A DNA stretch of 64,000 nucleotides from Cetorhinus maximus. Taxonomy: Eukaryota. The stretch spans positions 24,676,001 through 24,740,000 of the forward strand of contig NC_135907.1 in assembly GCF_964194155.1 (NCBI RefSeq). Reading direction: 5' to 3'. This document shows, piece after piece, positions 14,606-46,600 of the stretch (position 1 is its first letter; every line of letters begins with the position of its first letter). Under the pieces are notes generated by a model, which was given only the letters and a program-made list of their open reading frames with translations, was not told the origin of the DNA and did no database searches. A program made the translations under genes and the position numbers.

Positions 14606-14772
14606 TCAAGGTGATTCAGTTGATTTAGTGAGCTCGGTCATTGGCATGTTGCTCATGGGAATCTTCAGGTGTTCCTTGTTGCCAGGTTTCCAGCACCACA
14701 CGGAGATCACCACTAAGTGAAAGATGAAAACAAAACCCAGACGGATACCCATTGCAATCGGCCAAACCAATC
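14606..14772 (-). CDS. Activating-type Ig receptor: TM plus short cytoplasmic terminal exon (GLVWPIAMGIRLGFVFIFHLVVISVWCWKPGNKEHLKIPMSNMPMTELTKSTESP*)
   Basis: ctttctcatttcctatattag acceptor, phase 1 matches the Ig exon; hydrophobic helix with Arg (IRLG) and His; TGA at 14606-14608; ATTAAA just downstream. Confidence 0.8.
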
Positions 14773-15299
14773 CTAATATAGGAAATGAGAAAGTGATTAC
14801 ATTTCGGCAAAACCCTGAAAATGTTCAAGTTCATGTCCAATTGCCTTTCAAAAGTTCCCATGGAATCTACTCCCACCAAAGTGCATTTCAAATCATCATA
14901 AGTCTCTGGATTCATTTCTCTTCTCTTCCTCTTGTTCTTTTGCTGATGATTTTAAATTGATGACCTTTGGTTAGCTACCAGCTTGTCAAAGGAAACACTT
15001 TCTCTCTGCGCCCCACCTCACAAATCTCGCTCTGTTTTCACAGTTCTGACCATCACCCACCCCCACATACACCTCAAACCCAGCCCACAGCTCCACGCCT
15101 CATTTGCACCGTTCTACGTCCCCCCGCTCACAGCTCTACCCTCCCCTCCCCCCCCCCGCCCCCACGCCTGCTCTCACAGTTCAACCCCCCCGCCCCCAAA
15201 CTCTGCGGTCACGGAAATCTTGAAGCTTCAAAATGGAGTCACAGTGGGATAAATGTTTGGAAAGCACTGCTCTGTTTGCTCCTTCGTTATTGTGAATAC

Positions 15300-16400
15300 C
15301 TCAATTAAATCTCCCTTTAACCTTATCTCCAATCTCTCCAATTAACTGAACTTCTCCATCCCTGGTATCGTTCCAGTGATTCTCCTCTGCACCTTCTGCA
15401 AGGATTTGACATCCTTTCTTAGTGTGGTGCCCAGCATTGTACACAGTACTCCAACTGAAGCCTCACCAATGATTTAAATGTTTAGCATGACTTCCTTGGT
15501 TTTGCATTCAATGGCCCCAACTTACAAAACCAAGTCTCCCACCTTCACTTTATCAACTTGCTCTGTCACCTCAAAGACTTCTGAATATGCACTCCCAGGT
15601 CCCTCTACTCTTGCCCCTCCCCCCAACCTCCACAGAATATTATCATATAATGCCCCTCCATGTTGCTTCTGCCAGAGTAATCTACATTAAACTGTGCCTT
15701 CCACCTGTCTGCCCATTTCACCATCTGTCTCGGCCCTGCCCAAGTCTGTCACTATCCTGTTTACTATTTTCTAAACTTTCTTAAATTTAGTGTCATCCTC
15801 AAACTATGAAATTTTACTCCTTATACCAAAGTCCAGGCCATTTATCTATAAGAAAAGTAATAACAAGGTATTTTTATAGCACATTTAACCTAATAAAACA
15901 GCCCAATGTTCTTCACAGAGGCACTATAACACAAAAATAATCATTGAAACACATCAGGCGATACTAGGTAAGATGACCAAAAGCTTGGTCAAAGGGGTAG
16001 CTTTTATAGATTGTCTTAAAGAAGGAGAGAGCTGGGGAGAGGTTTAGCAAGGGAATTCTGGAGTTTAGGGCTCAGGCAACTGAAAGGCGTGGCCACCAAT
16101 GGTGGAGCGATTAAAATCAGGGATGAGCAAGAGGCCAGAATTAGGAAATTCAGGTATCCCAAAGGGCTGGAGGAGATTACAGAGATGGGAAGGGACGGAG
16201 CACGGAGAGATTTGTTAAAATGAATGAGCATTTTAAAATCGATGTTTAACTGGGAGACAGTGGAGGTGAATCAGGAGAGAGCTGGTGGGGAACAGGCTTT
16301 GGTGCGAGTTAGGACACAGGCAGCAGGATTTTGGGTGACCTCAGGAGGGGGAGGGTTACGGAGGTGGAAATAAGTGATCTTAGTGACAACCTGGATATGT
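15300..16400 (-). mobile_element. Old CR1/L2-type LINE fragments
   Basis: Reverse complement resembles LINE RT 3' region (LVRLQLEYCVQCW-like; FHLRN...QNPAACVLTR; FSCLSPKLQNSL). Confidence 0.6.
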
Positions 16401-16732
16401 GGTTGAAAACTCATCTGGAGTCTTTCGCTGCAGTTTGGAAAACATCCCTTCAGCACTATCCTCTCCCTGCTATCCCTTAGCCAAGTTGGCTCTTTAATAT
16501 CAGGTGAGTTGTTTCCTCCGGTTGGGATTCCGATTGTTTTACACCCGAACTATCTCTAGCCTGAAGGAACGGTCATGACCTGCTCGTCGGCTGGGGTTTT
16601 TGTGGTCAACCTTTAGCTTCCAGTCCTCTGTGCGAGATCCTTCATCAAATTACTGAAATGATCTCGCTTCCCATTCGAAGAGACTTGCCCGCACGGAAGA
16701 ACCAGAATTAGAAACACAAACAGGAACCTCAC

Positions 16733-17014
16733 CTTTCACAGTGAGTTTCACATAATTACTGTAGGCGACCGATGCGAACTGCACAGTGTCGTACACACAG
16801 TAGTAAGTCGCTGCATCTGATGTCTGGGCTTTGAACTCGAAGACACCATGGAAGCTCTTCCCCGATATGTTTATTACTCGCTGCTCGCCTGTTCCTACTT
16901 TATACAGATGTAGCTTGGCGACGGGCCCGGGCCCCGTTACATTGCATGTGAATTTCACACTGTCTCCGCTCGTCACGGAGCCTGACTGGGGGTCGACAGA
17001 CAGCGTCAGGACAC
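16733..17014 (-). CDS. Activating-type Ig receptor: single C2-type Ig exon (VLTLSVDPQSGSVTSGDSVKFTC...LHLYK...DAATYYC...SNYVKLTVK)
   Basis: 282-nt phase 1-1 exon, tgtttgttccag acceptor, gtgagg donor; two Cys, DxxxYxC motif, LYK at the C strand as in LRC/FcR-like domains. Confidence 0.9.
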
Positions 17015-17127
17015 CTGGAACAAACAGATTCGAGAATTAAACGTCCCCCGCTCTAGTTTAGATCCGTTTCTCTTGTGGTCTGCAGGACCGGTTTCAATAA
17101 ATCCATTCTGAAACCCTCTTTATGCTA

Positions 17128-18821: not shown

Positions 18822-18879
18822 TGTAAAGGACTGTGAGACCAACGAGCGAAGGAACAAGACCCCCATATATATTGGCCAT
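18822..18879 (-). CDS. Activating-type Ig receptor: putative leader exon (MANIYGGLVPSLVGLTVLY)
   Basis: ATG (ctcATGG), hydrophobic stretch, A|gtaagg phase-1 donor compatible with the Ig exon; a second mini leader exon may be missing from the model. Confidence 0.6.
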
Positions 18880-18984
18880 GAGTGGTGCAAGAGAATGGAC
18901 GAGTGAGAAAGAGTGAGAATGACATGTTGCTTCTGGCACTAAACTATTCTGCCCATATCTCCTGGGATCAAATCCCATCAGGAG

Positions 18985-19555: not shown

Positions 19556-20644
19556 TCTCTGTCCATGATGCTTTTGACATGTCCTAATTTCTAGATGTAA
19601 TATAAATACAACTGTCCCTGTTTTCTCAACCGTATTGAACGTGACATAAAACGTGCAGAGGGTTCGTGTGAATTGCCCGCTATAAATAAACTCAAAACAA
19701 AAAGCGGACTAGATGCTGACTAGTACTGTAAACTGGGTTGTGAAATATCTCTCAGTGACTGAAGTACTTGATGTTGGTGACTCATCCAGTCGAGTTCCCC
19801 CTTTTTGTTTTAGTTTTGGACACGAACCTTCCATTGCGACCTTCACCGAGCCAATCAAATGAGCTGTAAACAGAAAATAATAAATTCAATCATTCAAACC
19901 CAAAGGAATTAAGCCGAGAAAAAGTCAGTATTCAAGTACTTCATCAAATACAGGCTTTGTCCATGAGGTGAGCGCAGATTAAGTTGTGATGCCAAATGCA
20001 GCATTTCTATTTGTGCCCATTTTTCACCAATAACCAGCCCGTTTCTAACAGAATGAGAGTTGTTCTCACAAGAAATCCTCAATTAATTTAAACTGCAACG
20101 TTAACTTCCCGCTTCTCTTCTTCTCAAACAGTGTGATATTATTCCAGAGGGATTTACCAACATAGCGACATTATTCCCTCTCACTGAAAACCTCGATAGA
20201 TTTACTGACTAAACATCCCCCGGCCTTGACCACTAACTGGTAACTTGTTGTGAGGAGAGCATTTGTCAAACATCCCTGCTTGTTTCGAGAATTAAACTTC
20301 CCCCCTAGCAGTCCATGACAGCAAATGGTTTCCAAATAACCATTACCGCTCCATTTACTGCCAGCGAGTTGCATCTATCAATCATTTTCCTGATGTCAGA
20401 AGAAGCTCATTACAGTTTCTCGGGCGCTTTCACGAGTGTTCCTCAGAGCTGGGAGCGTTTCTTCTCCACGGTCTCAGCTCCTGAATGTCCTTCACCAATC
20501 AGCCACGGTCCAACTGAATGGCGGGGTAAGGCTCCAGGGGTCAATTGGCCTCCTCCTCCCGCTCCGACTTCTCGTGTCCCTCTCATGTTAACACCGTTGT
20601 GTCCAACAGGTCGAGGTGATGCGCCTAGTGTAAGGGCGAAGAGG

Positions 20645-20719
20645 ATGAGCACGCTTCTCGCTCTCTATCTGCTGGCTGCTTCTCATTATCTCACTTCCAG
20701 ACATTCCCGCTGGCTACAG
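20645..20719 (+). CDS. Candidate leader exon of the inhibitory-type receptor (MSTLLALYLLAASHYLTSRHSRWLQ)
   Basis: Signal-peptide-like core and a perfect CAG|gtaagt donor, but it ends in phase 0 while the next identified exon needs phase 1. Confidence 0.45.
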
Positions 20720-20735
20720 GTAAGTGAAAGTGTGG

Positions 20736-20948
20736 AACAAAAACAAAGGTACCTGGAAAAACTCAGCAGGTCTGACAGCATCTGCGGAGAGGAATACAGT
20801 TAACATTTCCGGAACTTCTGATGAAGAGTCAGACGGTCTCGAAACGTTAACTCTGTCTCTCTCTCTCCACAGATGCTGTCAGACCTGCTGAGTTTTTCCA
20901 GCATTTTCTGTTTTTATTTCAGATTTCCAGCATCCGCAGTACTTTATT
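20736..20948 (+). mobile_element. Short palindromic Penelope-derived element with a hammerhead core at ~20818-20852
   Basis: Inverted arms ctggaaaaactcagcaggtctgacagcatctg / cagatgctgtcagacctgctgagtttttccag around CTGATGA-AGAGTCAGACGGTCTC-GAAACGTTAAC. Confidence 0.8.
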
Positions 20949-22319
20949 TTTACCATAAAGTTTGCCCAGTGTTGCACGCCGGAGAGGAGACTCCAGTTTC
21001 GCTGGACACAGAGCTAACGTGACATAAATCATCATCTCATCTGCCAGAGAATGTGACAATATTTCAGCGGTAGCTACAGATAGATACAGATGAAGATACA
21101 ACACTCACCAACCACAACAATAACGAAAAACAGCATTTTTACTGGGAATTTTCTTCCATTAAGTTCCGAACTGCTTGGATTCCGCAAGGATAATATCTTT
21201 AGAGAATATGGGGCTGTAATTTGGCAATAACGGAACTGAGCTCATTGGCATTGAAACGTACCACTGACCAGAGGAAGTTCTCTCAATAAGAACGTTTGCC
21301 CTGACGAATTAAGAGAGGGTCATTTCCCGTAAACAATCTTTACTGTTGAAATGTCTTAGAGAATCAGAGCGGTTTACATATCAAAGGGGCCTCAGGCCCT
21401 CTGTCGGAATCATTTCATCGGAGAAAAAGGGTTAGGAGTTAAAAATATAATCCAGTTCTAGTCACAATCCATCCAAAGCCTCCAGTGCACCATCCCCACT
21501 TAGCTGCTGTGTGTCTGAGTCTGGACATTAAGTGTTGGGAAGAAATGGGATTAAGGAGTTGCAGCGTTCTGACCTGTTCTTAGACTGCTCGGTGCTCACT
21601 TCCAGGAATGGATCCGCTTTTGTTTTCGCGAGCTGACAGTTATAAATAAATTCAGAATTTGCACCTTTTGTTTTTGGTGCCAATACTCGTTTCTATTGGG
21701 GAATACAATCCTCTAAGTTTTGGATGGTTGATTCTTAAAAATCTAATGATAGCTTAGTTTTTAATTTGATTTTGTACTTCGATGAATCTGGGAAAAGTGA
21801 TGCTCGAAACACTAACCCCGAGACTGGGGGCTGGGGGTCACAGGCAGACTGGGGGGCAAAATGCTGGCTTCTCCAGTATCTGCGCGCAGTTTCTGAGTTT
21901 TCTAATAAGAAATAAAATCCATGAAGTCATTGTCCACTTTCCGTAATGACTAATAGGAACTTAGCAAAAACAGGACAATGATTGCATCGAATGTTAAAAA
22001 AAAACCACTGGCAGATTCATAGATTCAAAACATTACCAAGACTATATGGGCTTGTGTATCTTTAGTAACTGCACCATATGAACGTCCTTGTTTCCATGTA
22101 CATTAACCCTAATCCTAACGCGATACCTACCCCAACCCTAACTCAAATTTAAACTCTCCGCAAATTTAAAGGAAACCACAAACCAGTGAGGAACAAACGA
22201 GAAATAAGAATAGAAACACAAAAGGGGACAATTGGTTTACCGCCTGCATTCACCGCTCTAACTCGAATCCATACCCACTCAAACTGACCTTGATCTTCCA
22301 TTATTAATATACATACCAT

Positions 22320-24430
22320 CCTGATTTGGAAATGTATCGCCATTCCTTCACTGTCACTGGGTACAAACACAGAATAGATACATTCCAACGAGTAAGAAAA
22401 AGCCCAAGGGACCGACACACCATCCATGGTTAACGAGAAAGGTTAAAGATAGTATCAAACTTGAAGAAAAAGTATATAATTGTGCAAAGACAGATGGAAA
22501 GCCAGAAGATTGGACAGAATATAAAGAACAGGAAAGGATGACTAAATGACTAATAAGGAAGGAAAAATTAGAGTATGAGAGAAAGCTAACCAGAAATATA
22601 AACACAAATAGCAAGAGTTTCTATAAATATTTTAAAAAGAAATGAATTAACAAAGTGAGTTTTGGTCCTATAGAAAGTGAGTTTGGAGAATTGATAATGG
22701 AAAACAGGGAGATGGCAGATGAATTGAACAAGTATTTTGCATCAGTTTTCACTATAGAGGATACAAGTAACATCCCAGAAGTAGCTATAAATCAGGAAAC
22801 GGAAGGTATGGAGGAACTCAGGAAAATTACAATCACGAGAGAAGTGGTACTGAGTAAATTGTTGGAGCTGTTGTCTGACAAGTGCCCGGGTCCTGATGGA
22901 CATCCTAGGGTGTTAAAAGAAGTGGCTAGTGAGATAGTTGATGCATTGGTTTTAATTTTCCAAAACTCCCCAAATTTGGGGAAGGTCCCATTAGATTGGA
23001 AGATAGCAAATGTAACTCCATCATTCAAAAAGGGAGGTAGACAGAAAGCAGGAAATACAGGCCAGTTAGCTTAACATCTCTTAGGCAAAATGTTAGAAGC
23101 TTTTATTAAAGAAACTATAGCTGGGCACGTCGGTAACTTCAAGGTAATCAGGTAGAATCGATGTGGTTTTGTGAAAAGGAACTCATATTTAACCACTTAT
23201 TGGAATTCTTTGAGGAAGTAACACGTGCTGTGGATCAAGGGGAACGGGTGGATGAACTGTACTTATATTTCCAGAAGGCATTTGATAAGGTGCCACATCA
23301 AAGGTTATTGAGGAAAATAAAAGCTCATGGTATAGGGGGTAACATATTGCCATAGAGATTGTCTGGCTAACAGGAAGCAGAGAGTAGGCATAAATGCATC
23401 TTTTTCAGGTTGGCAAAATGTAACGAGTGGTGTGCCACAGGGATCAGTGCTGGGACCTCAACTGTTTACAATTTATATAAATGACTTGGATGAAGGGATG
23501 GATGGGATGGTTGCCAAATTTTCTGATGACACAAAGATAGGCATGAAAGTAAGTTGTGAGATGATATAAGGAGGCTACAAAAAGATATAGATAGGTAAGT
23601 GATGGGCAAAGATCTGGCAAATGGAGAATAATGTGGCAAAAATGTGAAATTGTCCATTTTGGCAGGAAGAATAAAGAGAAGCATATTATCTAAATGGTGA
23701 GAGATTGCAGAGCTCTGAGATGCAGAGGGATCTGGCTGTCTTAGTGCATTAATCACAAAAGGCTAGTCTGCAGGTATAGCAAGTAATTAGGAAAGCTAAT
23801 AGAATGTTACCATTTATTGCAAGGGGAATTGAATACAAAAGTAGGGAGGTTATGCTTCAGTTATACAGAGCACAGTGAGACCACAGCTGGAGTGCTGTGT
23901 ACAGTATTGGTCTCCTTATTTAAGGAAGGTTGTAAATGTGTTGGAAGCAGTTCAGAGAAGGTTTATCAGGCTAATACCTGGAATGGATGGGTTTGGACAG
24001 ACTAGGTTTGTATCCACTGGAGTTTAGAAGAGTAAGAGGTGACTTGATTGAAACATATAATATCCTGAGGGGTCTTGACAGGATGGATGTGGAGACGATG
24101 TTTCCTCTTGTGAGAAAATCTAGAACTAGGGGTCACTGTTTAAAAATAAGGGGTTACCCATTTAAAATGGAGATGAGGTGAAATTTCTTTCTCTCAGAGG
24201 GTCGTGAGTCTTTGGAACTCTCTTCCTGAAAAGGCAGTGGAAGCAGAGTCTGAATATTTTTAAGGCAGAGGTGGATAGATTCTTGGTAAGCAAGGGGGGT
24301 GATTGATTATTGGGGGTAGGCGGGATGCAGATTGGAGGTTACTATCAGATCAGCCATGATCTTATTGAATGGTCGAGCAGGCTCAAGGGGCCAAATGGCC
24401 TACTCCTGCTCCTTGTTTGTATGTTCATAT
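22320..24430 (+). mobile_element. Decayed CR1 LINE ORF2 and 3' UTR
   Basis: LNKYFASVFT, PGPDG, FQKAFDKVPH, RGDLIETY motifs, CR1 tail. Confidence 0.92.
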
Positions 24431-24889
24431 ATTCATAAAATCCTGGAACTCCCAGCCTAACAGCACTATGGGTGTACCTATGTCACATGGACTGCAGCAT
24501 TTCAAGAAAGCAACTCACCACCAGCTTCTCAAGGGCAAGGGCCTAGCCAGCAATGCCCACATCCCATGAGGGAATAGAAAAAATTAAGATCATAGATATA
24601 AAACCATTGTGTTGATACAGCTAGTAAACAATTATAAAACAGTTCTGGGCTGTAAAAAGAATTTCATGTAGAGCAGTTAAACTGCATTTAGAAACAGGAA
24701 ATAGCATAAACTAACCACTGTTACCTCTGTTGGAGATATAATTCTAAATGGGGGGGGCGGGGAATTATGATTTGGCAGCCTAAATTTGACAGCTAGTCTT
24801 CCTAATATTGGCCAAACGCAAAGGTCAGGAATAGCCTATTATCCAAAATTAAAGTCACACAAATGTTCCAAAGAGGAGATATAAAAGCA

Positions 24890-26805
24890 GAATTTAAGAG
24901 CTTATATAATTACGTTGAACAGGAAGAGATTAGCAAAAGTAGCAGGACACTTGGACAGTCATAGTATGATCAGACAGAGTCAACATGGATTGATGAAAGG
25001 GAAATTCAGTTTTTTTTTGAGGAAGTAACGAGCAGGGTCGATAAGGGGGAATGAAAGGATGTCTTGAATTTTGGATTTTGAAAAGGCATTTGACAAGATG
25101 TTACTCAAGATGAGGGTTCATGGGATTGGGGCCAAAAAATTAGCATGATTGGTTGGACAGAAAAAGGGATTACAGGAAGGACGTAATAGCTCTGGAGAGA
25201 GTGCAGAGGAGGTTTACAAGAATGCTGCCAGGGTTAGAAAAGTGTAGCTACGAGGAGAGATTGGATAGGTTGGGGTTATTTTCCTTAGAACAAAGAAGGC
25301 TGAGAGGTGACTTGATTGAGGTGTACAAAATTATGAGGGGATTAGATAGAGTGGACAGGATAAAATTGTTTCCCTTGGTGGAGAATTCTAGAACCAGGGA
25401 ACATAGATTCAAGATAAGTGGCAGAAGGTGTAGGGGGGACATGAGGAAGAACTTTTTTACCTAGAGAGTAGTGGGTGTCTGGAATTCGCTGCCCAAGTTG
25501 GTGGTAGAGGCAGAAACTCTAAACTCTTTTAAAAAGTACCTGGATCTGCACCTTAAGTGCTGTGAGCTGCAGGGCTATGGGCCGGGTGCAGGAAGGTGGG
25601 ATTACAAAGGGCACCTGGGTGTCCTCGGGCTGGCATGGACAAGATGGGCCAAATGGCCTCCTCTGTGCTGTAACTTTTCTATGGTTCTATGGATGCCAGA
25701 CTGAAACTATTGGATTGCCACAAGGATCAGTACTTGGGCCGCACCTATTTACAATCCATATCAGTGAATTAAGTGAGAGGACCAAGTGCTACATGTCTAA
25801 TTTCACTGACAATTCAAAGCTAAATGATAAAGGAAGCTGTGAGGAAGGAACAACGAAATTGCAAAAGTTTTTAGACCAGTTAAATTATTGGAAAAGGAAG
25901 TGACAAATGGAGTGTGATGTGGAGAAGCAAGAAATGATCCACTTTGGTAAGAGAATGGAAAAGTAGATTTTAAAAATCTAGTAAATGTTGGTATGCAAAA
26001 TGATTTGAGTATCCTTGTATATGAGTCAGACAGTTGACATGTAGGTACAGCAAGCAATTAGAAAACCAAATGGAATGTTACCTTTATTACAAAGGATAAT
26101 GGAGTATAAGAGTAACAACATTTTGCTGCAATTATATAAGGCCTTGGTGAAATTACCCCTGGAGTTCTGTTTACAGTTTTGGTTTCCGTATCGAAGGAAT
26201 GATTTACTTGTCTGAGGAACATAGAAACATAGGAAAATGGAAACAGGAGTAGGTCATTCAGCTCTTCGAGCCTGTTCCACCAATCAATGTGATCATGGCT
26301 GATCTTCTAACTCAACACCTTACTCCTGTTCTCTCCCCATACCCCTTGATGCTTTTAGTCTGAGAGGGAATGCCATGGAAGTTCACTAGATTAATTCCTA
26401 GGATGAGAGGACTATCCTATGAGAAAAGAATGAGGGGAAGGGGCCTAAACTCTCTGGTGCTTAGAAGAATCTCATTGATGGCTTGACAGGATAGAGGCTA
26501 TTTCTCTGGCTGGAGAGTCTAAAACTAAGGGTTACAGTCTCAGGGTAAGGGTCAGCCATTTGTACTGAGGTGAGGAGGGACTTCTCCACAGAATGTTGTG
26601 AATCATTGGAATTCTCTCCCCAGAAGATGGTGGGTGCTCAGACAGTGATTATAGTCAAGGCTGAGATTGCTGAAGTTTTGGACACTAAACAAATTAAGGG
26701 GATAGGGCAGGAAGGTGGAGTTGAATTTAGAAGGACAATCATGATCGTTGAATGGGGGAGCTGGCTGAATCGGCCTAATTACCTACTCCTGCTCCTATTT
26801 CTTAT
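24890..26805 (+). mobile_element. Old CR1 LINE with nested younger CR1 3' ends (~25168-25692 plus; ~26217-26360 minus)
   Basis: RT motifs; the nested copy ends in a (TTCTATGG)n tail. Confidence 0.85.
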
Positions 26806-26860
26806 ATACTTACCACCAAAAGCAGACATTTCCTTGATGTTTGTGAAGCATTTCCGTGTT

Positions 26861-29800
26861 GGGAAGGCAATGGCGTAGTGGTATTGTCACTGAACTGAAA
26901 AGCAATCCAGAGAGCCAGGGTAATGCTTGGGGTACCCAGGTTCGAATTTGACCACAGCAGATGGTGAAATTTGAATTCAATAAAAATCTGGAATTAATAG
27001 TCTAATGATGACTATGAAACCATTGTCACAAAAACCCATCTGGTTCACTAATATCCCTTTAGGGAAGGAAGTCTGCCATCTTTACCTGGTCTGGCCTACA
27101 TGTGACTAGATCTACAACAACATGGTTGACTCTTAAATGGCCCAGCAAGCCACCCAGTTGTATGAAACCGCTAAAAAGCCTAGAAGGAATGAAACCAGGT
27201 GGACTACCCGGCATTGACCTAGGCACTGCAAATGACAACAGCAAACTCAGCCCTGTTGACCCTGTAAAGTCATCCTTACTAACATCTGGGGACTAGTAAA
27301 ATTGGGAGAAAGCACTGAGGGTGGCAAGGGCACAGAATATACTCTGGGTGGGGGGACTTCAATGTCCATCAACAAGAGTGGCTCGGTAGCACCACTGTTG
27401 GCTGAGTCAAAAGGACATGGCTGCTAATCTGGGTCTGCAGCAGGTGGTGAGGGAACTAACAAGAGGGAAAAAGATACTTGATCTCATCCTCACCAACCTG
27501 CCTGCCACAGTTGCATCTGTCCATGACAGCATTGATAGGAGTGACCACTGCACAGTCCTTGTGGAGATGAAGTCCCGACTTCACATTAAGGATACCCTCC
27601 ATCGCCTTGTGTACCACCGTGCTAAATGGGATAAATTACAAATAGTTCTAGCAACTCAACACTGGTCAACCATGAGGTGCTGTGGGCCATCAGCAGCAGC
27701 AGAATTGCCCTCAACCACAATCTGTAATCTCATGACCCGGTATATCGCCCACTCTATCATTACCACCAAGCCAGGGGAGCAACCCTGGTTCAATGAAGAG
27801 TGCATGAGGGCATGCCAGGAGCACCACCAGGCATACCAAAAATGAGGCTTCAACCTGGTGAAGCTACAACACAGGACTACTTGCGTGCCAAACAGCATAA
27901 CCAGGAAGTGATAGACAGAGCTAAGCGATCCCACAACCAATGGATCAGATCTAAGCTCTGCAGTCCTGCCACATCCAATCGTGAATGATGGTGGACAATT
28001 AAGCAACTCATTGGAGGAGGAGACTTCACAAATATCCCCATTCTCAATGATGGGGGAGCCCAGCACATCAGTGCAAAGGATAAGGCTGAAGCATTTGCTA
28101 CAATCTTCAGCCAAAAGTGCCGCGTGGATGATCCATTTCAGCCTCCTCCTCCAGAGGTTTCCAGCATCACAGATGCCAGTCTTCAACCAATTCAATTCAC
28201 TCCACGTCATATCAAGAAATGGGCTGAAGACACTGGAAACTGCAAAGGCTATGGGCCCTGACAATATTCTCGCAATGGTACTGAAGACTTGTGCTCCAGA
28301 ACTTGCCATACCCCTAGCCAAGCTGTTCCAGTACAGCTACAACACTGGCATCTACTCAGCAATGTGGAAAATTGCCCAGGTATGTCCTGTACACAAAAAG
28401 CAGGACAAATCCAACCCGGCCAATTACCACCCCATCAGTCTACTCTCGATCATCAGTAAAGTAATGGAAGGGTGAGTAATGAACAGTGCTATGAAGCAGC
28501 ACTTGCTTAGCAATAACCTGCTTACTGACTCCCAGTTTGGGTTCTGCCAGGGTCACTCAGCTCCTGACCTCATTAAAGCCTTGATTCAAACATGGACAAA
28601 AGAGCTGAACTCCCGAGGTGAGGTGAGAGTGACTGCCCTTGACATCAAGGCAGCATTTGACCGAGTGGGGCATCAAGGAGCCCTAGCAAAACTGGAGTCA
28701 ATGGGAATCAGGGGGAAAACTCTCTGCTAGTTGAAGTCATACCTAGCACAAAGGAAGATGGTTGTGGTTGTTGGAGGTCAGTCATCTCAGTTCCAGGACA
28801 TACGAACATACGGATGGGGAGCAGGAGTAGACCATTCAGCCCCTTGAGCCTGCTCCACCTTTTAATAAGATCATGTTTGATCTGACAGTAACCTGAAATT
28901 TGCATCTTGCCGACCCCCGATATCACCCCCTTGCTTACCAAGAATCTATCCACCTCTGCCTTAAAAATATTCAAAGACTCTTGCTTCCACCATCTTTTCA
29001 GGAAAAGAGTTCCAAATACTCACGACCCTCTGAGAGAATAAATTTCACCTCATCTCTGTTTTAAATGGGGGCCCCTTATTTTTAAACAGTGACCCCTAGT
29101 TCTAGATATCACTGCAGGAGTTCCTCAGGGTAGTGTCCTAGGCCCAGCCATCTTCAGCTGCTTCATCAATGACCTTCCTTCCATCATAAGGTCAGAAGTG
29201 GGGATGTTCACTGAGGATTGCACAATATTCAGCACCATTCGCGACTCCTCAGATACTGGAGCAGTCCATATCCAAATGCAGCAAGACCTGGACAATATCC
29301 AGGCTTGGTCAGACAAGTGGCAAGTAACATTTGTGCCACACGAGTGCCAGGCAATGCCCATCTCCAATGAGAGAGAATCCAACCATTGCCCTTTAACATT
29401 CAATGGCATTACCATCACTGAATCTCTCACGATCGACATCCTGGGGGTTATCATTGACCAGGAACTGAACTGGACTAGCCATATAAATACTGTGTCTACA
29501 AGAGCAGGTCAAAGGCTAGGAATCCTGTGACAAGTAAATCACCTGCTGCCTCCCCAAAGCCTGTCCACCATTTACAAGGCACAAGTCAGGAGTGTGATGG
29601 AATTCTCCCCACTTACCTTGATGAGTGCAACTCCCACAACACTCAAGAAGCTTGACAACATCCAGGACAGAGCAGCCCGCTTGATTGGCACCCCTTCCAC
29701 AAACATTCATTCCCTCCACCACCGACACACAGTAGCAGCAATGTGTACCATCTACAAGATGCACTGCAGGAACTCACCAAGGTTCCTTTGACAGCACCTT

Positions 29801-30090
29801 CCAAACCTGTGAGCACTACCACCTAGAAGGACAAGGGCAGCAGACAGATGGCAACCTGCAAGTTCCCCTCCAAGCCACTCACTATCCTGACTTGGAAATA
29901 TATCCTTCATTGTTGCTGGGCCAAAATCCAAGAATTTCCTCCCTAACATCACTACGGGTGTACCTACACCACATGGGCTTCAGCGGTTCAAGAAGGCAGC
30001 TCATCACCACCTTCTCAAGGGCAATTAGGGATGGGCAATAAATGCTGGACCAGCCAGTGAAGCCCACACCCTGTGAATGAGTAAAAAAGA
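26861..30090 (+). mobile_element. HER1-like LINE (EN-RT) with an HE1 SINE-like tRNA head; nested CR1 3' end at ~28798-29105 (minus)
   Basis: A-box tggcgtagtgg and B-box ggttcgaat; GDFN, SDH, NYHPISLLS, DIKAAFDRV, PQGSVLGP motifs; HE1/HER1 tail. Confidence 0.88.
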
Positions 30091-30304
30091 AATGGCCACT
30101 GCTTTGTCTACATAGCCAGAGGTGGTAGCTGTCTATTGGGGCGGACGTAATAGATGTCCAGCACTATTGGAAGAGGATGGAGCTACTCCCACTGTCCTGA
30201 CCCATCATGATGAGTTGCTAAGACACTGGAGCATGTTATCTGCAGGACTGAGCCCACCTTTTGCCACTGTCATTAGGGGAGGAAGGTAAAAAGGGAGCAT
30301 GTTA

Positions 30305-30893
30305 GGAACGTAAGAACATAAGAACTAGGAGCAGGAGTAGGCAATTCAGCCCCTCGAGCCTGCCCCGCCATTCAATACGATCATGGCTGATCTCATCTCA
30401 GCCTCAACTCCAATTTCCCACCCTCTCCCCATAACCTTTCACCCCATTACTAATTAAAAATCTGTCTATCTCCTCCTTAAATTTATTCAGCGTCCCGGCA
30501 TCCACTGCACTCCGAGGTAGTGAATTCCACAGGTTCACGATCCTTTGAGAAAAGTAATTTCTCCTCATCTCTGATTTAAATCTACCACCCCTTAGCCTAA
30601 AACTATGGCCTCTCATTCTAGAATGCCCCACAAGGGGAACCACCCGCTCCATGTCTACTTTGTCTATCCCCTTTAGCATCTTATATACCTCATTTAGATC
30701 CCCTCTCATCCTTCTAAGCTCTAGTGAGTATAGGCCTAAACTGCTCAATCTCTCCTCATAAGACAAGCCCCGCATCTCTGGAATCAATCTAGTGAACTTC
30801 ATCTGAACCGCCTCCAATGCAACTACATCCTTCCTCAAGTAAGGGGACCAAAACTGTGCACAGTACTCCAGGTGTGGTCTCACCAATGCCTTG
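30305..30893 (-). mobile_element. CR1 LINE 3' fragment
   Basis: KALVRPHLEYCAQFWSP...RGDLNEVYK...FSQRIVNLWNSLP; tail at ~30305. Confidence 0.92.
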
Positions 30894-31819
30894 TGTTGAA
30901 AATCATTCGCTGGGGTGTTTGTAATGCAAGCCAATGTTTCCCCATGTACAACTTCTGCATTTGAATTACTTCCTCCTGATGATAGTTCCTGAGCCGAAAT
31001 CTTTCTGTTCAATTTTTCATGATGATTCTGCAATTCCTTCTTTTGGTGGGTGAGTACTCTAGCTCCTACTGTTCTGCATGGGTTCACTTACAGGGAAGCA
31101 ATGATCCAAAGGTTGTGGACAGGTGTCCAGTGCTGGCTGAAAGTGGGGTGCAGCAATGTGACCAAGTGATCCAGTTCTGGGTGAAATCACGAGCCCCTGG
31201 CACTGAACACTGGAGCATCTGCACTGACACATGGGCTGGATTTAACAATGGGGAGTTAGCAACCGAAAGTCTACAGGAATGGGTCAAAAATAAACCACAA
31301 AATGTATGTTTCAAATACATGGAAGGGTGTATGTGCGTTCACTCCTGCAGTTGTTGACAGGAAGGAGAATGGTTCCATTTGTGTCCATTGTCAAGTATTT
31401 AGATGTTTAAATTACTGGAGGAAGTTTCCCCCACCAGGTTCACCGTTTACGCCGCTTTTCCTGGAGTTTCCGCGGCTCTTCCGTCGAAGTTACGACCGAC
31501 AAGTGGGAATTAGCACTTTATTCCAACCATATTATCCACCCACCCCAATGAGATTCGGCCCAACCTCACATCATGAGATCGCGATCGGTCCCCACTGCCT
31601 CCCGGGTGGATGGTCCTGCACTGACATAACACCCGGATTACACCCAGATTGGCATAACAGCAAAGCGGAACTGAAACACAGTAGCCTCTCCATGGTCAGA
31701 GCTCCTGAAACAGCAGAAAGGAGAACAGCTGGGCTCCGCTCTGCACCAGAATCCTCCAGCAAAACTCGGTTACACCGCAGAAACCCCACGCAGTCGCACA
31801 AAGTTCAAATGAGATCCCC

Positions 31820-33657: not shown

Positions 33658-33687
33658 TTCAAGTTATTGGAAATTGGTCTGTAGCAG
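33658..33687 (+). CDS. Inhibitory-type receptor: 30-nt second leader mini-exon (xQVIGNWSVA)
   Basis: Strong ctttttctctgttacag acceptor, CAG|gttagt donor, open in phase 1-1; split leaders are typical of LRC/FcR genes. Confidence 0.65.
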
Positions 33688-36045: not shown

Positions 36046-36405
36046 GTTCCAATATGCCTGATGACAGGCAGTAGGAGTAGGGCAGCAGAAGGGAACTGCT
36101 AATCACTGGAGTATTTTGCCAGACAGAATCTTGGACCAATGGAAGTTCATGGTCGCCAAAACTCTCTTAGGGTTTGTTACAAAGAGGAGGGAACATTATG
36201 CTCCTCTCAATAAGGCTGAGGTTATACTGGGTTACTGCACAGAATTTACAGCACGGAACCTCCCAGCTGTGTTACTGCAGAGACAGCTGCTCCTGGAATG
36301 CAGGTATACTATGGGCTTTCACAGGGAACCAGCTCTGGGTAACACTTCTCTCTTGGCGCAAAGTGAAGATGTGCAGTAGGGTAGGATCCTCGGAGGTAGA
36401 AATTT

Positions 36406-36733
36406 GGGCAGAATCTTCCCGGTCTCACTGAGTCGGCTTTGAAGTGGGGGCATCAGGTCAGTGCCCCTCATGAGTTCCCACCTCCAGCCAATCTTCCCAA
36501 TGCAGATTTAAATATGTAAGCGCCCAGTTTGGGAAGATTGTGGACTCTGCTGAGGTGGCTGGTAGGGGAATGGGTGGGGGAGGGTGGAGAAAATCCTCCT
36601 ATACTTCCATTCTTCACTGGATGGTGGACAGGGAGGCGGCCAATTACGATCACGTCGGCTGGTGCAGTGACGAGTTGGGACCTGAAAATGATCCTCACCA
36701 GTGTTTGTTTTTAAAGCGAGGGAGATTCCACCC
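36406..36733. mobile_element. Probable Harbinger-type MITE
   Basis: Imperfect TIRs gggcagaatcttccc / gggagattccaccc, similar to the MITE at 50992. Confidence 0.5.
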
Positions 36734-36756: not shown

Positions 36757-38190
36757 CAGATCCACTGCCCACTATACACAGATCCACTGCCCATTATACA
36801 CAGATCCACTGCCCATTACACACAGATCCACTGCCCGTTATACACAGATCCACTGCCCACTATACACAGATCCACTGCCCACTATACACAGATCCACTGC
36901 CCGTTATACACAGATCCACTGCCCACTATACACAGATCCACTGCCCATTATACACAGATCCACTGCCCATTATACACAGATCCACTGCCCACTATACACA
37001 GATCCACTGCCCGTTATACACAGATCCACTGCCCATTATACACAGATCCACTGCCCATTATACACAGATCCACTGCCCGTTATACACAGATCCACTGCCT
37101 GTTATACACAGATCCACTGCCCACTATACACAGATCCACTGCCCGTTATACACAGATCCACTGCCCACTATACACAGATCCACTGCCCGTTATACACAGA
37201 TCCACTGCCCACTATACACAGATCCACTGTCCATTATACACAGATCCACTGCCCATTATACACAGATCCACTGCCCATTATACACAGATCCACTGTCCGT
37301 TATACACAGATCCACTGCCCGTTATACACAGATCCACTGCCCGTTATACACAGATCCACTGCCCGTTATACACAGATCCACTGCCCATTATACACAGATC
37401 CACTGCCCATTATACACAGATCCACTGCCCATTATACACAGATCCACTGCCCACTATACACAGATCCACTGCCCACTATACACAGATCCACTGCCCAATA
37501 TACACAGATCCACTGCCCGTTATACACAGATCCGCTGCCCACTATACACAGATCCACTGCCCGTTATACACAGATCCGCTGCCCGTTATACACAGATCCG
37601 CTGCCCACTATACACAGATCCACTGCCCGTTATACACAGATCCACTGTCCGTTATACACTGATCCACTGCCCGTTACACACAGATCCACTGCCCATTATA
37701 CACAGATCCACTGCCCATTATACACAGATCCACTGCCCATTATACACAGATCCACTGCCCGTTATACACAGATCCACTGCCCACTATACACAGATCCACT
37801 GCCCATTACACACAGATCCACTGCCCGTTATACACAGATCCACTGCCCACTATACACAGATCCACTGCCCATTATACACAGATCCACTGCCCATTATACA
37901 CAGATCCACTGCCCACTATACACAGATCCACTGCCCACTATACACAGATCCACTGCCCAATATACACAGATCCACTGCCCACTATACTCAGATCCACTGC
38001 CCACTATACACAGATCCACTGCCCGTTATACACAGATCCACTGCCCATTATACACAGATCCACTGCCCACTATACACAGATCCACTGCCCACTATACACA
38101 GATCCACTGCCCACTATACACAGATCCACTGCCCGTTATACACAGATCCACTGCCCGTTATACACTGATCCACTGCCCGTTATACACAGC
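36757..38190. repeat. 21-bp minisatellite (CAGATCCACTGCCCRYTATACA-like), ~65-70 copies
   Basis: Directly visible; the 500-aa ORFs are repeat artefacts. Confidence 0.97.
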
Positions 38191-39168: not shown

Positions 39169-39450
39169 CAAGTCCACGAAAACCTCGCATTTTCTCATCG
39201 TGTGTTAATTGCACCGAAGGAGATGACATTTTGTTCTCCTGCATTCCTCCAAAGAGAGGCAGCAACTATAGTTTTTACAAAGATGGAGAACTTCTCAAAG
39301 TCATCAAAGGAGAAGGAACATACGGGATTTTGAAGATTGGAGGAGTGACTGCATCAGATCAGGGAAAGTACAGCTGTGAAAACAAGATAAATGAGACTAA
39401 TGGAATGTCTGGACAGAGCAAGTCATTGCTTGTGTACGTCCAGCTGAAAG
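39169..39450 (+). CDS. Inhibitory-type receptor: single C2-type Ig exon (SPRKPRIFSSCVNCTEGDDILFSC...SFYKDG...DQGKYSC...SGQSKSLLVYVQLK)
   Basis: 282-nt phase 1-1 exon; ttcactacag acceptor, AAG|gtgaga donor; KP start, FYKDG, DxGxYxC. Confidence 0.92.
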
Positions 39451-40075: not shown

Positions 40076-40319
40076 AGTCAGGTACAAGGTCTGCTGTAAA
40101 AAAACAGAAAATGCTGGAAGCACTCAGCAAGTCTGGAAGCGCCTGTGGAGAGAGAAACGGAATTAACATTTCAGATGAAATTTGGACAGTTTGTGTCAGA
40201 GGTTTAAACTCATTTCACTTAGTATAGGGATAATTTTGACAGGGTGATATCAGATCAGTTGCCTAATATACACCCCTCCTCTCCCAATTTAAACAACTCC
40301 CCTATTTATAAATCTCCCT

Positions 40320-41200
40320 GCGTTTATACACCCCTCCCCATTTACACAGCCCCTCCATTTATACACCCTTCCCCATTTACACAGCCCCTCCATTTATACA
40401 CCCCTCCCCATTTACACAGCCCCTCCATTTATACACCCCTCCCCATTTACACAGCCCCTCCATTTATACACCCCTCCCCATTTACACAGCCCCTCCATTT
40501 ATACACCCTTCCCCATTTACACAGCCCCTCCATTTATACACCCCTCCCCATTTACACAGCCCCTCCATTTATACACCCCTCCCCATTTACACAGCCCCTC
40601 CATTTATACACCCTTCCCCATTTACACAGCCCCTCCATTTATACACCCCTCCCCATTTACACAGCCCCTCCATTTATACACCCTTCCCCATTTACACAGC
40701 CCCTCCATTTATACACCCTTCCCCATTTACACAGCCCCTCCATTTATACACCCCTCCCCATTTACACAGCCCCTCCATTTATACACCCCTCCCCATTTAC
40801 ACAGCCCTTCCATTTATACACCCCTCCCCATTTACACAGCCCCTCCATTTATACACCCCTCCCCATTTACACAGCCCTTCCATTTATACACCCCTCCCCA
40901 TTTACACAGCCCCTCCATTTATACACCCCTCCCCATTTACACAGCCCCTCCATTTATACACCCCTCCCCATTTACACAGCCCCTCCATTTATACACCCTT
41001 CCCCATTTACACAGCCCCTCCATTTATACACCCCTCCCCATTTACACAGCCCCTCCATTTATACACCCCTCCCCATTTACACAGCCCCTCCATTTATACA
41101 CCCCTCCCCATTTACACAGCCCCTCCATTTATACACCCTTCCCCATTTACACAGCCCCTCCATTTATACACCTTCTCCAATTTATACTCCCTCATTTATA
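40320..41200. repeat. 35-bp minisatellite (CATTTATACACCCCTCCCCATTTACACAGCCCCTC), ~24 copies; degenerate continuation at ~42790-42870
   Basis: Directly visible; the array is split by a CR1 insertion. Confidence 0.95.
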
Positions 41201-41202
41201 CA

Positions 41203-43040: not shown

Positions 43041-43148
43041 ATGCTCACTCCAGGTACAGTGCCCTGGCCATAATGGGGATCTGCTTTGTCATCCTTTCGA
43101 TTCTCTTCATTCTGGGCTTCAGTTTATACTTCTGTTTCACCAAAAAAG
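43041..43148 (+). CDS. Inhibitory-type receptor: TM exon (DAHSRYSALAIMGICFVILSILFILGFSLYFCFTKK)
   Basis: 108-nt phase 1-1 exon, AAG|gtgagt donor; uncharged hydrophobic helix followed by KK. Confidence 0.9.
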
Positions 43149-43908: not shown

Positions 43909-43939
43909 CAAGAGTTATTAAAAGGCAGGGAGAAGAACG
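43909..43939 (+). CDS. Inhibitory-type receptor: cytoplasmic exon 1 (ARVIKRQGEE)
   Basis: ctctttttctctatttag acceptor, gtaaga donor; 31 nt, phase 1 to 2. Confidence 0.8.
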
Positions 43940-44720: not shown

Positions 44721-44847
44721 CTGCCAAAATCCAGTGCCACTTTGAGGAGAGGAGTAAAAATGGGACAAAGTACAAATCATTGCTTGGGGTAGGGGGAAGT
44801 TCTCAGCAATAAATGTTTGTACATCAAAGTTTCTCTTTGGTTTTCAG

Positions 44848-44888
44848 AGCAAACGAGAACGAAGAATGGTCCAACTCCATCACAATCT
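44848..44888 (+). CDS. Inhibitory-type receptor: cytoplasmic exon 2 (RANENEEWSNSITI)
   Basis: ttctctttggttttcag acceptor, gtaagt donor; 41 nt, phase 2 to 1. Confidence 0.8.
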
Positions 44889-45559
44889 GTAAGTCTGGTA
44901 TTGTAGTGTTGTGGTTCTGTTATTGGATAATAATGAGTGGTGTGGGAGGCCTGCCCACACTCTGGACCGCTGGAAGCCCCTTTACTGAGGCAAAAAGAGG
45001 ACCCCGAGGATGCCCCAAAATGGAGGTGTCCTGTGACACCAGCAGAGAATTTTAAAATGGAGGAGAGAGGATACCCTGCACAGGATAAATTGTAGCTCAG
45101 GCTGTTGCCTTTTGATCCTTGTGGCTCCTTCACTGGGGCATTAACCGGAGGTCCTGATGGTGCGGGGCTCAGAGGGCAGTGTGACCAATACCACAATGCC
45201 AGTGGGTTCTGAAAATTACCCCAAAGTGGGGCACTAATTGGACTAATTGGCCGCCTGCCTCTGTGGAGTGGGTTGCCGATTCCGATGGCAGTCCTGCCCT
45301 GGGAAACTCGCCCGGAGGTGGAACATCATCAGGGAGCTGTCTTGATGTGGAACCATCTGAATTCCCCTGCTCCCTGTCTCTGGGCTAGGAAAATTCCACC
45401 CACTCACCGTGAAAAATCATTTGAGTGTCTTTCCAGATATTTTTACAGAGAATAAGTGTTGGCCATTTGAAAATTCACAAGTAAATCGAGCATTGATTTA
45501 TTCTTCATATTCTTTACGAATAGTCCATGTTCTAAAGCTGGATTTTTTTTGTTTTTCAG

Positions 45560-45597
45560 ATGACTTACTGAGGCTTCCACACCGCATAACTCCACAA
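45560..45597 (+). CDS. Inhibitory-type receptor: cytoplasmic exon 3 (YDLLRLPHRITPQ)
   Basis: ttttttgtttttcag acceptor, gtatgt donor; 38 nt, phase 1 to 0; the junction creates TIYDLL. Confidence 0.8.
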
Positions 45598-46468
45598 GTA
45601 TGTTCTCACTCTCATTGCTCCTGAACACACAGTAACCAGTGCAGCCCTGGGCATCTCTTGTCCAATTAATCATTCACTCTGTAACTGATCATTAGGTTGT
45701 GTCTGAAGCAGTGCAGGCTTTCACCCGCAGATAAGCACACCACTCCCCCACTATCCCTCACTTCACATTGCTGCTCCTAATAATAATATATATAAGACTT
45801 AACAGCAGAGTTTCACCTGATCAGTTGGTTACTCTAATAAGCATTTCCTTACAGAGCAGCAGGATTTTGTAACCAAACTATTTTGTATTTGGTAAGGACC
45901 TTACTGAGGTCTTTTTATCCAGTATCAAAAAAGATCAGCAATTTGAAAAAGATTATGGCTGTCACAAGACTTAGAATCTAACCTGCAGTGCTTTGAAAAG
46001 TTCCAGAAAGTCTGCTGCTGTAGCCAAGTTCAGGACTGTTAGTTTCTGATAAATCTCAAAGTCTTTGTATGTGAGAGAGACAGGGGAAGTGTGTGTCTGT
46101 GTGTGTGTCTGTGTGTACACCTTTTGTCTTCTCTCTCTTTAAACAGGTAGTGCAGCCAGCTATAGCATATGGCATTGGTTAACTAGAGGTCATTACTACT
46201 TCTTCAGTTCTTTACCCAGAGGCGGGTCTAACCCACAACCTCCACCATGGGTAGGGCAAGGAGGCAGGTCCTGAATCCAACCCGGCCAGAACGGAGATTG
46301 AACCCTATGCTGCTGATCCACACAGACCATCCAGCCAACTGTGCCCCTCAGGAACTACTCTCCGCTTCCTGTCCCTTAATTAGTTTCATACCCAATAGAT
46401 ATCGCTGAATCCTGGGCATCACCACAGGCGTTAGTACAGCTGGGATAACAATGTTTTCTTGTTTTCAG

Positions 46469-46600
46469 GAAAGTGATCACCATGATGAGCAAGGCAGTTC
46501 CCCTGTTAACACATATGCCAATCTCTATGCAACAGCTTTGTACAGAGTGGAGCTGCCAGACACAAAGGAGGAAGGACTTTACTCTGTGATACAGGCTTAA
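46469..46600 (+). CDS. Inhibitory-type receptor: last coding exon (ESDHHDEQGSSPVNTYANLYATALYRVELPDTKEEGLYSVIQA*)
   Basis: ttttcttgttttcag acceptor, open in phase 0 to TAA; Tyr motifs NTYANL and GLYSVI; AATAAA at 47135. Confidence 0.85.
   Translation, partial: ESDHHDEQGSSPVNTYANLYATALYRVELPDTKEEGLYSVIQA

Follow-up and report, generated by a model that had tools for sequence, protein, structure and literature searches.

Several described receptor systems resemble the locus reported here. LAIR-1 and VSTM1 consist of one C2-type Ig domain, a neutral transmembrane (TM) segment and a tail encoded on several small exons, and the second leader exon of LRC genes is 36 nt long. Activating LRC receptors include LILRA, PIR-A, NKp46/NCR1, OSCAR, TARM1, GPVI, FcalphaRI and chicken CHIR-AB1. 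KIR3DX carries its leader on two exons (PMC8562567). The NxxR motif is carried by all FcR-gamma-coupled LRC receptors except KIRs, and activating KIRs use a TM lysine (PMC6557307) and pair with DAP12 (PMC2413239). In the activating class of Xenopus XFL genes the TM and tail share one exon, and in the inhibitory class the tail is on separate exons with one to three YxxL/I/V motifs; leader exons of 30 and 21 nt are the rule of the FcR family, to which only a fraction of XFL genes conform (PMC2413239). Strict paired receptors have very similar extracellular domains (PMC3533184), and opposite-strand start sites less than 1 kb apart define a bidirectional-promoter pair (PMC2077898). A 2014 survey detected no LRC-type C2-only receptors, FCRL or FcR-gamma chain in sharks, and assigned the origin of such receptors to bony fish (PMC4016189).

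The locus is found in a 64,000 nt stretch of the basking shark genome (Cetorhinus maximus, NC_135907.1, positions 24,676,001 to 24,740,000), termed here the window. As a first-pass annotation of the window had proposed, there are two divergently transcribed genes, each with a single 282-nt phase 1-1 Ig exon. The spliced-model translations are identical to RefSeq proteins, i.e. LOC144669462 (gene A, minus strand, 170 aa) and LOC144669525 (gene B, plus strand, 230 aa), and both Ig exons match Pfam Ig_2/Ig_3 (Table 1). The exon structure, the split leaders, the TM charges and the tail tyrosines are observed features of both genes. The two appear to be single-copy, head-to-head receptor genes of one Ig domain each, their start codons lying 9.9 kb from one another and their promoters likely separate. 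Gene A likely encodes an activating LRC/FcR-like receptor and gene B likely encodes an inhibitory receptor, and the two probably recognise different ligands. A rough probability of 0.62 is assigned to this reading.

Table 1. Features of the gene A/gene B locus (positions in the window)
Feature	Position	Strand	Basis or remark
Gene A exon 1, 5′ UTR and leader S1	21109..21390	-	RefSeq N-terminus and RNA-like contig
Gene A leader mini-exon S2, 36 nt, phase 1-1	19828..19863	-	RefSeq model
Minus exon 1 of the first-pass annotation	18822..18879	-	Inside gene A intron 2; probably unused
Gene A C2-type Ig exon, 282 nt, phase 1-1; LRC/FcRL-like predicted fold	16733..17014	-	Pfam Ig_2/Ig_3, profile, fold
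Gene A TM and Tyr-free tail, one exon	14606..14772	-	Arg126, His134, WPxAx[GS]x[RK]L...H motif
Plus exon 1 of the first-pass annotation	20645..20719	+	Phase 0, strong donor; antisense inside gene A intron 1
Intergenic stretch between 5′ ends	21400..30950	.	Repeats; very high RNA-like read depth
Gene B leader S1, 31 coding nt, phase 1	31019..31049	+	RefSeq; ATG 31019/31022
Gene B leader mini-exon S2, 30 nt, phase 1-1	33658..33687	+	RefSeq model
Gene B C2-type Ig exon, 282 nt, phase 1-1, three N-glycosylation sequons	39169..39450	+	Pfam Ig_2/Ig_3
Gene B uncharged TM exon, 108 nt	43041..43148	+	RefSeq model
Gene B tail exon 1, 31 nt, phase 1-2	43909..43939	+	RefSeq model
Gene B tail exon 2, 41 nt, phase 2-1; first base of Tyr175 codon	44848..44888	+	
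Gene B tail exon 3, 38 nt, phase 1-0; completes Tyr175 motif TIYDLL	45560..45597	+	
Gene B last coding exon, 132 nt; Tyr203 (NTYANL), Tyr207, Tyr212, Tyr225 (GLYSVI), stop	46469..46600	+	

Gene B resembles LAIR-1, VSTM1/SIRL-1 and allergin-1/HIDE1 in its one C2 Ig domain, neutral TM and multi-exon tail with tyrosine motifs. The neutral TM, the four tail exons of consistent phase and the five tyrosines noted in the first pass are all present in the RefSeq model. Three of the five tyrosines (Tyr175, Tyr203, Tyr225) lie in YxxL/I motifs, and none of the five lies in a strict ITIM (I/V/L/S-x-Y-x-x-I/L/V) or a strict ITSM (T-x-Y-x-x-V/I). Gene B differs from these receptors in this respect, and also in that neither profile nor tree assigns its Ig domain to the LRC. 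Signalling by gene B is predicted from its sequence to be inhibitory: Src-family kinases would phosphorylate Tyr175, Tyr203 and Tyr225, and the phosphotyrosines would recruit SHP-1/SHP-2/SHIP-type phosphatases. The Carcharodon orthologue keeps all five tyrosines and differs at 2 of 81 tail positions and 9 of 94 Ig positions, a difference in divergence that is not significant (Fisher p = 0.065).

The family to which gene B belongs bears on this interpretation. It is possible, at less than even odds, that gene B represents another C2-Ig lineage (allergin-1/FCRL/PECAM/CEACAM-like) which neighbors gene A by chance, and that its TxYxxL is perhaps a switch motif for SAP/EAT-2- or Grb2-type adaptors, i.e. 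not purely inhibitory. The lack of a canonical ITIM is in accord with this, as are the ESM atlas neighbors of gene B, which are allergin-1, FCRL5/2 and PECAM. The gene B profile gives CEA first and PirB second among PDB matches with weak scores, and the CEACAM identity suggested by a single-sequence PDB search was set aside as misleading or weak. When the 8,000 best candidates were scored, no shark homologue beyond Carcharodon was found, and the only non-shark matches were three frog proteins, two of them named FcR-like. One tree groups gene B with frog FcR domains with weak support (53/73), but gene B sits on a long branch that no tree places firmly. Against a separate lineage, gene B shares with gene A the plan of a split leader and a 282-nt Ig exon. 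In addition, a Callorhinchus receptor that groups with the gene A family (94/86) also resembles gene B over 192 aa (E-value = 1e-15), and its tail and that of gene B both carry an NSI-x-x-YD motif. One-clade tests reject neither gene A plus gene B (p = 0.19 and 0.44) nor gene B plus the Callorhinchus receptor (p = 0.46 and 0.50). The LRC-like and the inhibitory character proposed in the first pass are both unproven for gene B; for gene A the LRC-like character stands by profile, by fold and by the nearby CNOT3 gene.

The best single-domain PDB match of the gene A-family profile is chicken CHIR-AB1 (E-value = 1e-12, 50.9 bits). The top matches are mostly FCRL5, PirB, LILRs, NKp46, OSCAR and KIR3DL1, with FCRL5 the top whole-chain match, and LAIR-1 is also among the best sequence and fold matches. 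The ESM atlas neighbors are HIDE1, KIR and TARM1. SIRP and TCR, found by a single-sequence PDB search, were rejected as misleading or weak. An AlphaFold model of gene A, based on an alignment consisting mostly of Ig domains from another contig (C39), has a pLDDT of 87.9; an earlier run on two sequences gave a pLDDT of 53 and was discarded. Foldseek ranks 1–11 are all LRC proteins, the highest listed TM-score being 0.85 with CHIR-AB1, and the VIA Z-scores are 13.9 for PirB, 13.7 for CHIR-AB1 and 13.6 for LILRB4 (rmsd 1.7–1.8, 88–89 aligned). The margin is thin, however, as PECAM-1 and CD22 show Z-scores of 12.9 and 12.5 and the Foldseek E-values of TCR, CD22 and PECAM are within about four-fold of the top match. 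Thus the modelled Ig domain of gene A shows an LRC/FcRL-type fold, with a small margin over FCRL, PECAM-1 and CD22. The 28 + 36 nt leader of gene A fits the two-exon LRC leader with its 36-nt second exon; neither it nor the 31 + 30 nt leader of gene B follows the 30/21-nt FcR rule.

Gene A is like the activating LRC receptors in its C2 Ig domain, two-exon leader, basic residue near the TM start and short Tyr-free tail. It differs in having one Ig domain, in lying as a single copy outside a tandem cluster next to a neighbor that is not its sister, and in its TM helix. The first-pass annotation correctly described an arginine-containing TM (Arg126) with a Tyr-free tail and overlooked His134. The sequence at Arg126 is M-G-I-R, and NxxR is found in none of eight family TMs. 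A motif with Arg or Lys and His, WPxAx[GS]x[RK]L...H, takes its place. Of 21 proteins examined, 8 carry this motif, and they come from three sharks, Mobula, Callorhinchus and one further assembly. Gene A and its catshark homologue differ at 5 of 29 TM positions and 32 of 94 Ig positions; the TM is therefore the best-kept part of the protein, which argues for a membrane partner.

Lacking a signalling tail of its own, gene A would associate with an ITAM adaptor within the membrane. The most likely candidate is the FcR-gamma-like chain of this genome, contacted through Arg126 with His134 as a possible second polar contact, and the complex would signal through Syk-type kinases; the activating role is thus a prediction. 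A TM exon on contig C356 has FceRI-gamma as its best PDB match (9e-12, versus 7e-8 for CD3-zeta), and a separate zeta-like locus is present on contig C16. A complex prediction with the gene A TM and two copies of the FcR-gamma-like TM scored 0.07 and was counted neither way. It is considered unlikely that the partner of gene A is instead DAP12/DAP10, CD3-zeta or a co-receptor, or that gene A serves in adhesion or does not signal at all. The absence of NxxR and of an acidic residue at the TM end would fit such a role, and the chimaera homologue has in place of the arginine a lysine, the residue used by DAP12-paired activating KIRs. However, receptors coupled to FcR-gamma likewise have their basic residue at the N-terminal helix end, the FcR-gamma-coupled XFL class likewise encodes TM and tail on a single exon, and the TM is the segment best conserved relative to catshark.

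The spacing of the two genes differs from that first proposed, where ATGs at 18879 and 20645, about 1.8 kb apart, were taken to share a bidirectional promoter. Both RefSeq proteins begin elsewhere and include an extra leader mini-exon. The gene A ATG is at 21136, in a leader exon of 28 coding nt ending in phase 1, and leaders of gene A homologues agree with this exon. An RNA-like contig (run X2, depth 87) covers exon 1 and ends exactly at the S1 donor; the real 5′ end may be further out than 21390. As a start, 18879 was rejected: its leader has an 8-residue hydropathy of 2.24 versus 3.84 for the 21136 leader, its donor scores 2.0 versus 4.5, and the exon is not found in homologues. The gene B protein begins at 31019 and its Carcharodon orthologue at the second Met (31022 equivalent), not at 20645. 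Position 20645 is intronic and antisense because gene A exon 1 reaches at least 21390, and RNA-like depth over 20348–20632 is 3.6, the intronic level (3.4), versus 87 at gene A exon 1. Spliced straight to the gene B Ig exon, the 20645 exon, which ends in phase 0, is out of frame; it is at most a putative alternative first exon joined through a candidate acceptor at 30986, just upstream of S1. RNA-like contigs were mapped over 19600–36700, a segment that excludes the Ig and TM exons, and are swamped by repeats; they are unlabelled and come from sources none of which is recorded as RNA. No joint of either gene is among the 15 joints listed out of about 2,830, a sample uninformative on absence.

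ATG to ATG, the distance is thus 9,883 bp, mostly repeat DNA. Of the intergenic stretch, 81% recurs elsewhere in the 664 kb examined, with LINE-like fragments recognized by eye. About 9.5 kb separates the outermost base seen at the 5′ end of gene A from the first coding exon of gene B, beyond the 1 kb of a bidirectional pair as judged on the coding start of gene B. The first-pass annotation had itself named a plus-gene start distant from 20.6 kb as contrary to its proposal, and this is what the coding start shows. The promoters are likely separate. It is improbable that A and B arose by a single tandem duplication as a true activating/inhibitory pair and are co-expressed under a common bidirectional promoter, with the gene B start near 20.6 kb, its 5′ end overlapping exon 1 of gene A and a splice from 20719 to 30986. 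The 20719 donor is strong (score 8.7), the join is in frame and open, CpG o/e is elevated across 16–22 kb and the AU test does not reject A and B as one clade, but the protein starts, the antisense position and the intronic read depth given above all oppose it, and the ectodomains are sisters in no ML tree.

The two Ig domains are only weakly similar, as noted in the first pass, with 22 of 99 aligned columns identical, a blastp E-value of 0.004 and an hhalign probability of 3.9%. The genes are adjacent and have opposite signalling layouts, one a charged TM with a short tail and the other a tail with tyrosine motifs, and to this extent the paired-receptor proposal stands. They are not paired receptors in the strict sense because the ectodomains are only 22% identical. 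In two-class exon logic and YxxL/I/V tails, A and B are also like Xenopus XFL/FCRL and teleost LITR, and frog FcR-like proteins are the nearest non-shark relatives of gene B; they differ from these in lacking an NxxR TM and in having one Ig domain.

CNOT3, an LRC-flank gene, is situated about 125 kb to the left of gene A, the one of five markers searched (CNOT3, PRPF31, NDUFA3, TMC4, TTYH1) that is on this contig. PRPF31 and the likeliest copies of TTYH1, NDUFA3 and TMC4 are on small unplaced contigs. Other neighbors are DDX47, a class C GPCR and WBP11; in catshark a gene A homologue is modelled upstream of WBP11, and in the chimaera the A-like and B-like proteins are on different contigs. No additional Ig exons were found in 664 kb around the window, and the TM/tail exon of gene A is single copy in the genome. 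Contig C39 has a much larger cluster of related Ig domains, with no gene A-type TM in a 190-kb sample. A and B resemble conserved orphans of a family that has expanded mainly on C39.

Related models are present in databases as LOC121271791 (Carcharodon), "protogenin B-like" (Scyliorhinus torazame), "IGSF1-like" (Callorhinchus) and "FCRL1" (Pristiophorus). In the searches made, these and the RefSeq models are labelled "uncharacterized" or by best match, without functional description. No literature description of the two genes or of a shark LRC was found in a search made largely outside subscription journals; a 2024 bamboo-shark single-cell paper already applies fcrl labels (PMC11372145). These existing models and labels limit the value of the finding, as does the predicted nature of the signalling roles.

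Evidence against the absence from sharks and the bony-fish origin given in the 2014 survey (PMC4016189) comes from the A/B locus, the shark, ray and chimaera homologues, the C39 cluster and the FcR-gamma-like exon. Tentatively, and with less than even confidence, gene A may represent a chondrichthyan-wide LRC-type activating class that uses FcR-gamma through an undescribed Arg/Lys + His helix. Together with gene B, the FcR-gamma-like adaptor and C39, it may point to an LRC-style system in the jawed-vertebrate ancestor, with CNOT3-WBP11-DDX47 a relic of LRC-type/12p13-NKC-type linkage. Gene A is single-copy and conserved, and is therefore an easy handle for testing when adaptor-coupled Ig receptors originated and whether TM pairing with adaptors follows a second code.

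The Cetorhinus maximus RefSeq genes LOC144669462 (gene A, 170 aa protein P0001) and LOC144669525 (gene B, 230 aa protein P0004) show a 100% match to the two Ig exons. Splice sites of the internal exons are all GT-AG with consistent phases, and the spliced models with split leaders translate to P0001 and P0004 with no difference. The Ig, transmembrane (TM) and tail exons of the first-pass annotation are correct. Its start codons, at 18879 and 20645 around a shared promoter of ~1.8 kb, are contradicted by the RefSeq models, which start at 21136 and 31019. This puts 9,883 bp between the two ATGs; of positions 21400–30950, 81% recurs elsewhere within the 664 kb examined.

The 21136 leader exon can be aligned to homologue leaders from catshark, bamboo shark, sawshark, ray and chimaera. 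A 370 nt contig from run X2 (RNA by guess, from a related organism) spans 21109–21390 at a depth of 87, compared with 3.4–3.6 for contigs from introns close by, and ends precisely at the predicted gene A donor, with extra letters past it. The exon at 20645–20719 ends in phase 0 and is ruled out as a direct partner of the Ig exon, as the join shifts the frame. It is a leader-like ATG exon, antisense within gene A intron 1, with a short repeat after its strong donor; the 20719 donor scores above those of true exons. A candidate splice from 20719 to an acceptor at 30986 is open and in frame with gene B, and could count against the RefSeq start. An ETS-type octamer, ACTTCCTC, is found immediately upstream of both true start codons, at 21278 (minus) and 30968 (plus).

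Features of the two genes, their surroundings and the C39 cluster (window positions unless a contig is named)
Feature	Position	Strand	Remarks
Gene A leader exon	21136-21109	minus	mapped from RefSeq N-terminus
Gene A leader mini-exon	19863-19828	minus	36 nt, mapped from RefSeq N-terminus
Gene A Ig exon	17014-16733	minus	282 nt, phase 1-1
Gene A TM + tail	14772-14606	minus	single exon
Gene B leader exon	31019-31049	plus	mapped from RefSeq N-terminus
Gene B leader mini-exon	33658-33687	plus	30 nt, mapped from RefSeq N-terminus
Gene B Ig exon	39169-39450	plus	282 nt
Gene B TM exon	43041-43148	plus	
Gene B tail exons		plus	four: 31, 41, 38, 132 nt
WBP11 5' exons	50-12790	minus	start near 12.7 kb, ~2 kb beyond gene A stop codon
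Minisatellite arrays	11918-12656, 36757-38189, 40316-41172, 47674-48356, 57287-58055, 60464-61473, 62463-63022		periods 7-35
C39 Ig cluster	G000:C39 about 0-5.3 Mb		loci L002, L071-L079, L082-L110

The gene A TM carries Arg126 and His134, and the tail is Tyr-free. Between basking shark and catshark the TM is best conserved (5/29 differences vs 32/94 in the Ig domain), and the TM exon is single copy in the genome (next match E = 0.37). Searching 1.84 billion representatives with a profile yielded 250 matches at E ≤0.001, three of them at 1e-30; 150 were listed and 20 of those named. Among the matches listed, the nearest named relatives include Pristiophorus, Chiloscyllium, Mobula and Callorhinchus, and the remoter ones are multi-Ig proteins of mixed origin, bacterial ones included. 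The TM pattern of gene A, WPxAx[GS]x[RK]L...H, is displayed by 8 of the 21 proteins examined; NxxR is found in none of these eight TMs. NxxR is given as a conserved hallmark of FcR-gamma-coupled LRC receptors in the available text of PMC6557307. Domain number varies within the family: sawshark P0009 and chimaera P0013 have two Ig domains, and the single Ig of basking shark and catshark resembles the first sawshark domain, that of Mobula P0015 the second.

The A-family profile, from an alignment that included Callorhinchus P0050, places FCRL5, PirB and LILRB1/2 at the top in whole-chain ranking; with one-domain entries CHIR-AB1 is first, then LILRA2, NKp46, OSCAR and KIR3DL1. An AlphaFold model from 19 sequences (pLDDT 87.9) matches LAIR-1, LILRB4, LILRA5 and GPVI at Foldseek ranks 1–11, and VIA places PirB, CHIR-AB1, LILRB4 and KIR3DL1 on top (Z 13.9–13.1), with PECAM-1 at 12.9.

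Gene B has a TM without charge and five tail tyrosines: Tyr175 (TIYDLL), whose codon is interrupted by an intron, Tyr203 (NTYANL), Tyr207, Tyr212 and Tyr225 (GLYSVI). Three of the five are in YxxL/I; none forms a strict ITIM or ITSM. The Carcharodon orthologue shows 93% identity with all five tyrosines conserved, and differences number 2/81 in the tail vs 9/94 in the Ig domain (p 0.065). Its candidate relatives differ from method to method: allergin-1/FCRL/PECAM by ESM features, CEACAM and then PirB by PDB profile, and frog FcR-like proteins by HMMER. Callorhinchus P0050 is similar to gene B across 192 aa and shares an NSI-x-x-YD motif; in the tree its position is closer to the A family.

The activating/inhibitory pair proposed at first pass holds in that the genes are adjacent with opposite signalling layouts, and their exon logic is like that described for Xenopus XFL in the accessible part of PMC2413239. 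It does not hold for the ectodomains, which PMC3533184, in the portion available, defines as very similar in paired receptors: 22/99 columns are identical, in line with the weakly similar Ig domains described at first pass, and A and B are not sisters in the 81-domain tree (at most four domains kept per protein) or its 34-domain counterpart (a hand-picked subset), both built without named mammalian or chicken LRC domains. The AU test does not reject their sisterhood (p-AU 0.44, 0.19).

For both genes the analysis establishes the structure, charges and motifs, and for A the predicted fold class; the signalling roles draw on known LILRA/FcalphaRI/XFL and ITIM-like receptor behaviour. By this analogy, and with a probability of roughly 0.6, A would be activating, signalling through Arg126 via an ITAM adaptor, likely FcR-gamma, with His134 as a possible second contact, and B would bring in SH2 phosphatases to dampen activation; their ligands would likely differ. 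A candidate FcR-gamma-like gene is known from its TM exon at G000:C356:1999-2079 (L028, L091), separate from a zeta-like locus at 69.02 Mb on contig C16. A 2014 survey (PMC4016189), in the sections available, reports no FcR-gamma in sharks.

The window occupies 24,676,001–24,740,000 of contig G000:C30. To the left of the pair on C30 are WBP11, a CCDC96-family gene, CNOT3 (~24.53–24.57 Mb), a class C GPCR, a TRIM-NHL gene and DDX47. WBP11, DDX47 and GPRC5 are on human 12p. Exons on the right resemble what we take to be FMC1 and an RBFOX gene; Pfam gave no match for them. The catshark model P0003 combines A, WBP11 and the CCDC96-family gene in the same order, a fusion that is likely a prediction error. 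No further Ig exons of A or B type are found in the 664 kb examined. Downstream, gene B adjoins a minus-strand LTR-retrotransposon-like element (~48360–55900, from the ORF list and sequence) with sequences alike near its two ends and broken gag/pol/integrase-like frames. The longest open frames of the window come from long minisatellite arrays and are not genes.

CNOT3 flanks the LRC in mammals. At G000:C30:24.41-24.57 Mb (L031, L035-L039, L063-L066) it lies amid DDX47, the class C GPCR and the TRIM-NHL gene, not next to PRPF31. None of the four other LRC-flank markers searched (PRPF31, TTYH1, NDUFA3, TMC4) is on C30: PRPF31 is on unplaced contig C2928; for TTYH1, NDUFA3 and TMC4, elimination alone points to C526, C1008 and C4482, respectively, as the likeliest locations. 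NDUFA3-like copies without introns on C7, C4, C20, C8 and C5 are probably processed pseudogenes. An LRC-NKC linkage is less likely, since PMC8302630, as far as its available text goes, traces the two to different ancestral chromosomes.

New in this work are the TM motif, the range across cartilaginous fishes and the link with CNOT3, within a signalling logic that was known before. A literature search, with subscription journals mostly outside it, found no paper on either gene. The available sections of PMC4016189 describe sharks as without LRC C2-only homologues, and those of PMC11372145 already apply fcrl labels in bamboo shark; RefSeq names the relatives IGSF1-like or A1BG-like.

Related C2-type Ig exons are numerous on contig C39 (5.4 Mb) and some 30 unplaced contigs of small size, C914, C957, C1019 and C1020 among them, with 63 and 83 matches, each from 150 scored candidates. 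A 190-kb sample of C39 holds 34 profile matches, some fragmentary, and three neutral TMs. The cluster displays several Ig subfamilies and multi-domain genes, and some exons are broken. C39 with the small contigs could be the principal LRC/FcRL-like complex of the shark, and its importance may exceed that of the A/B pair.
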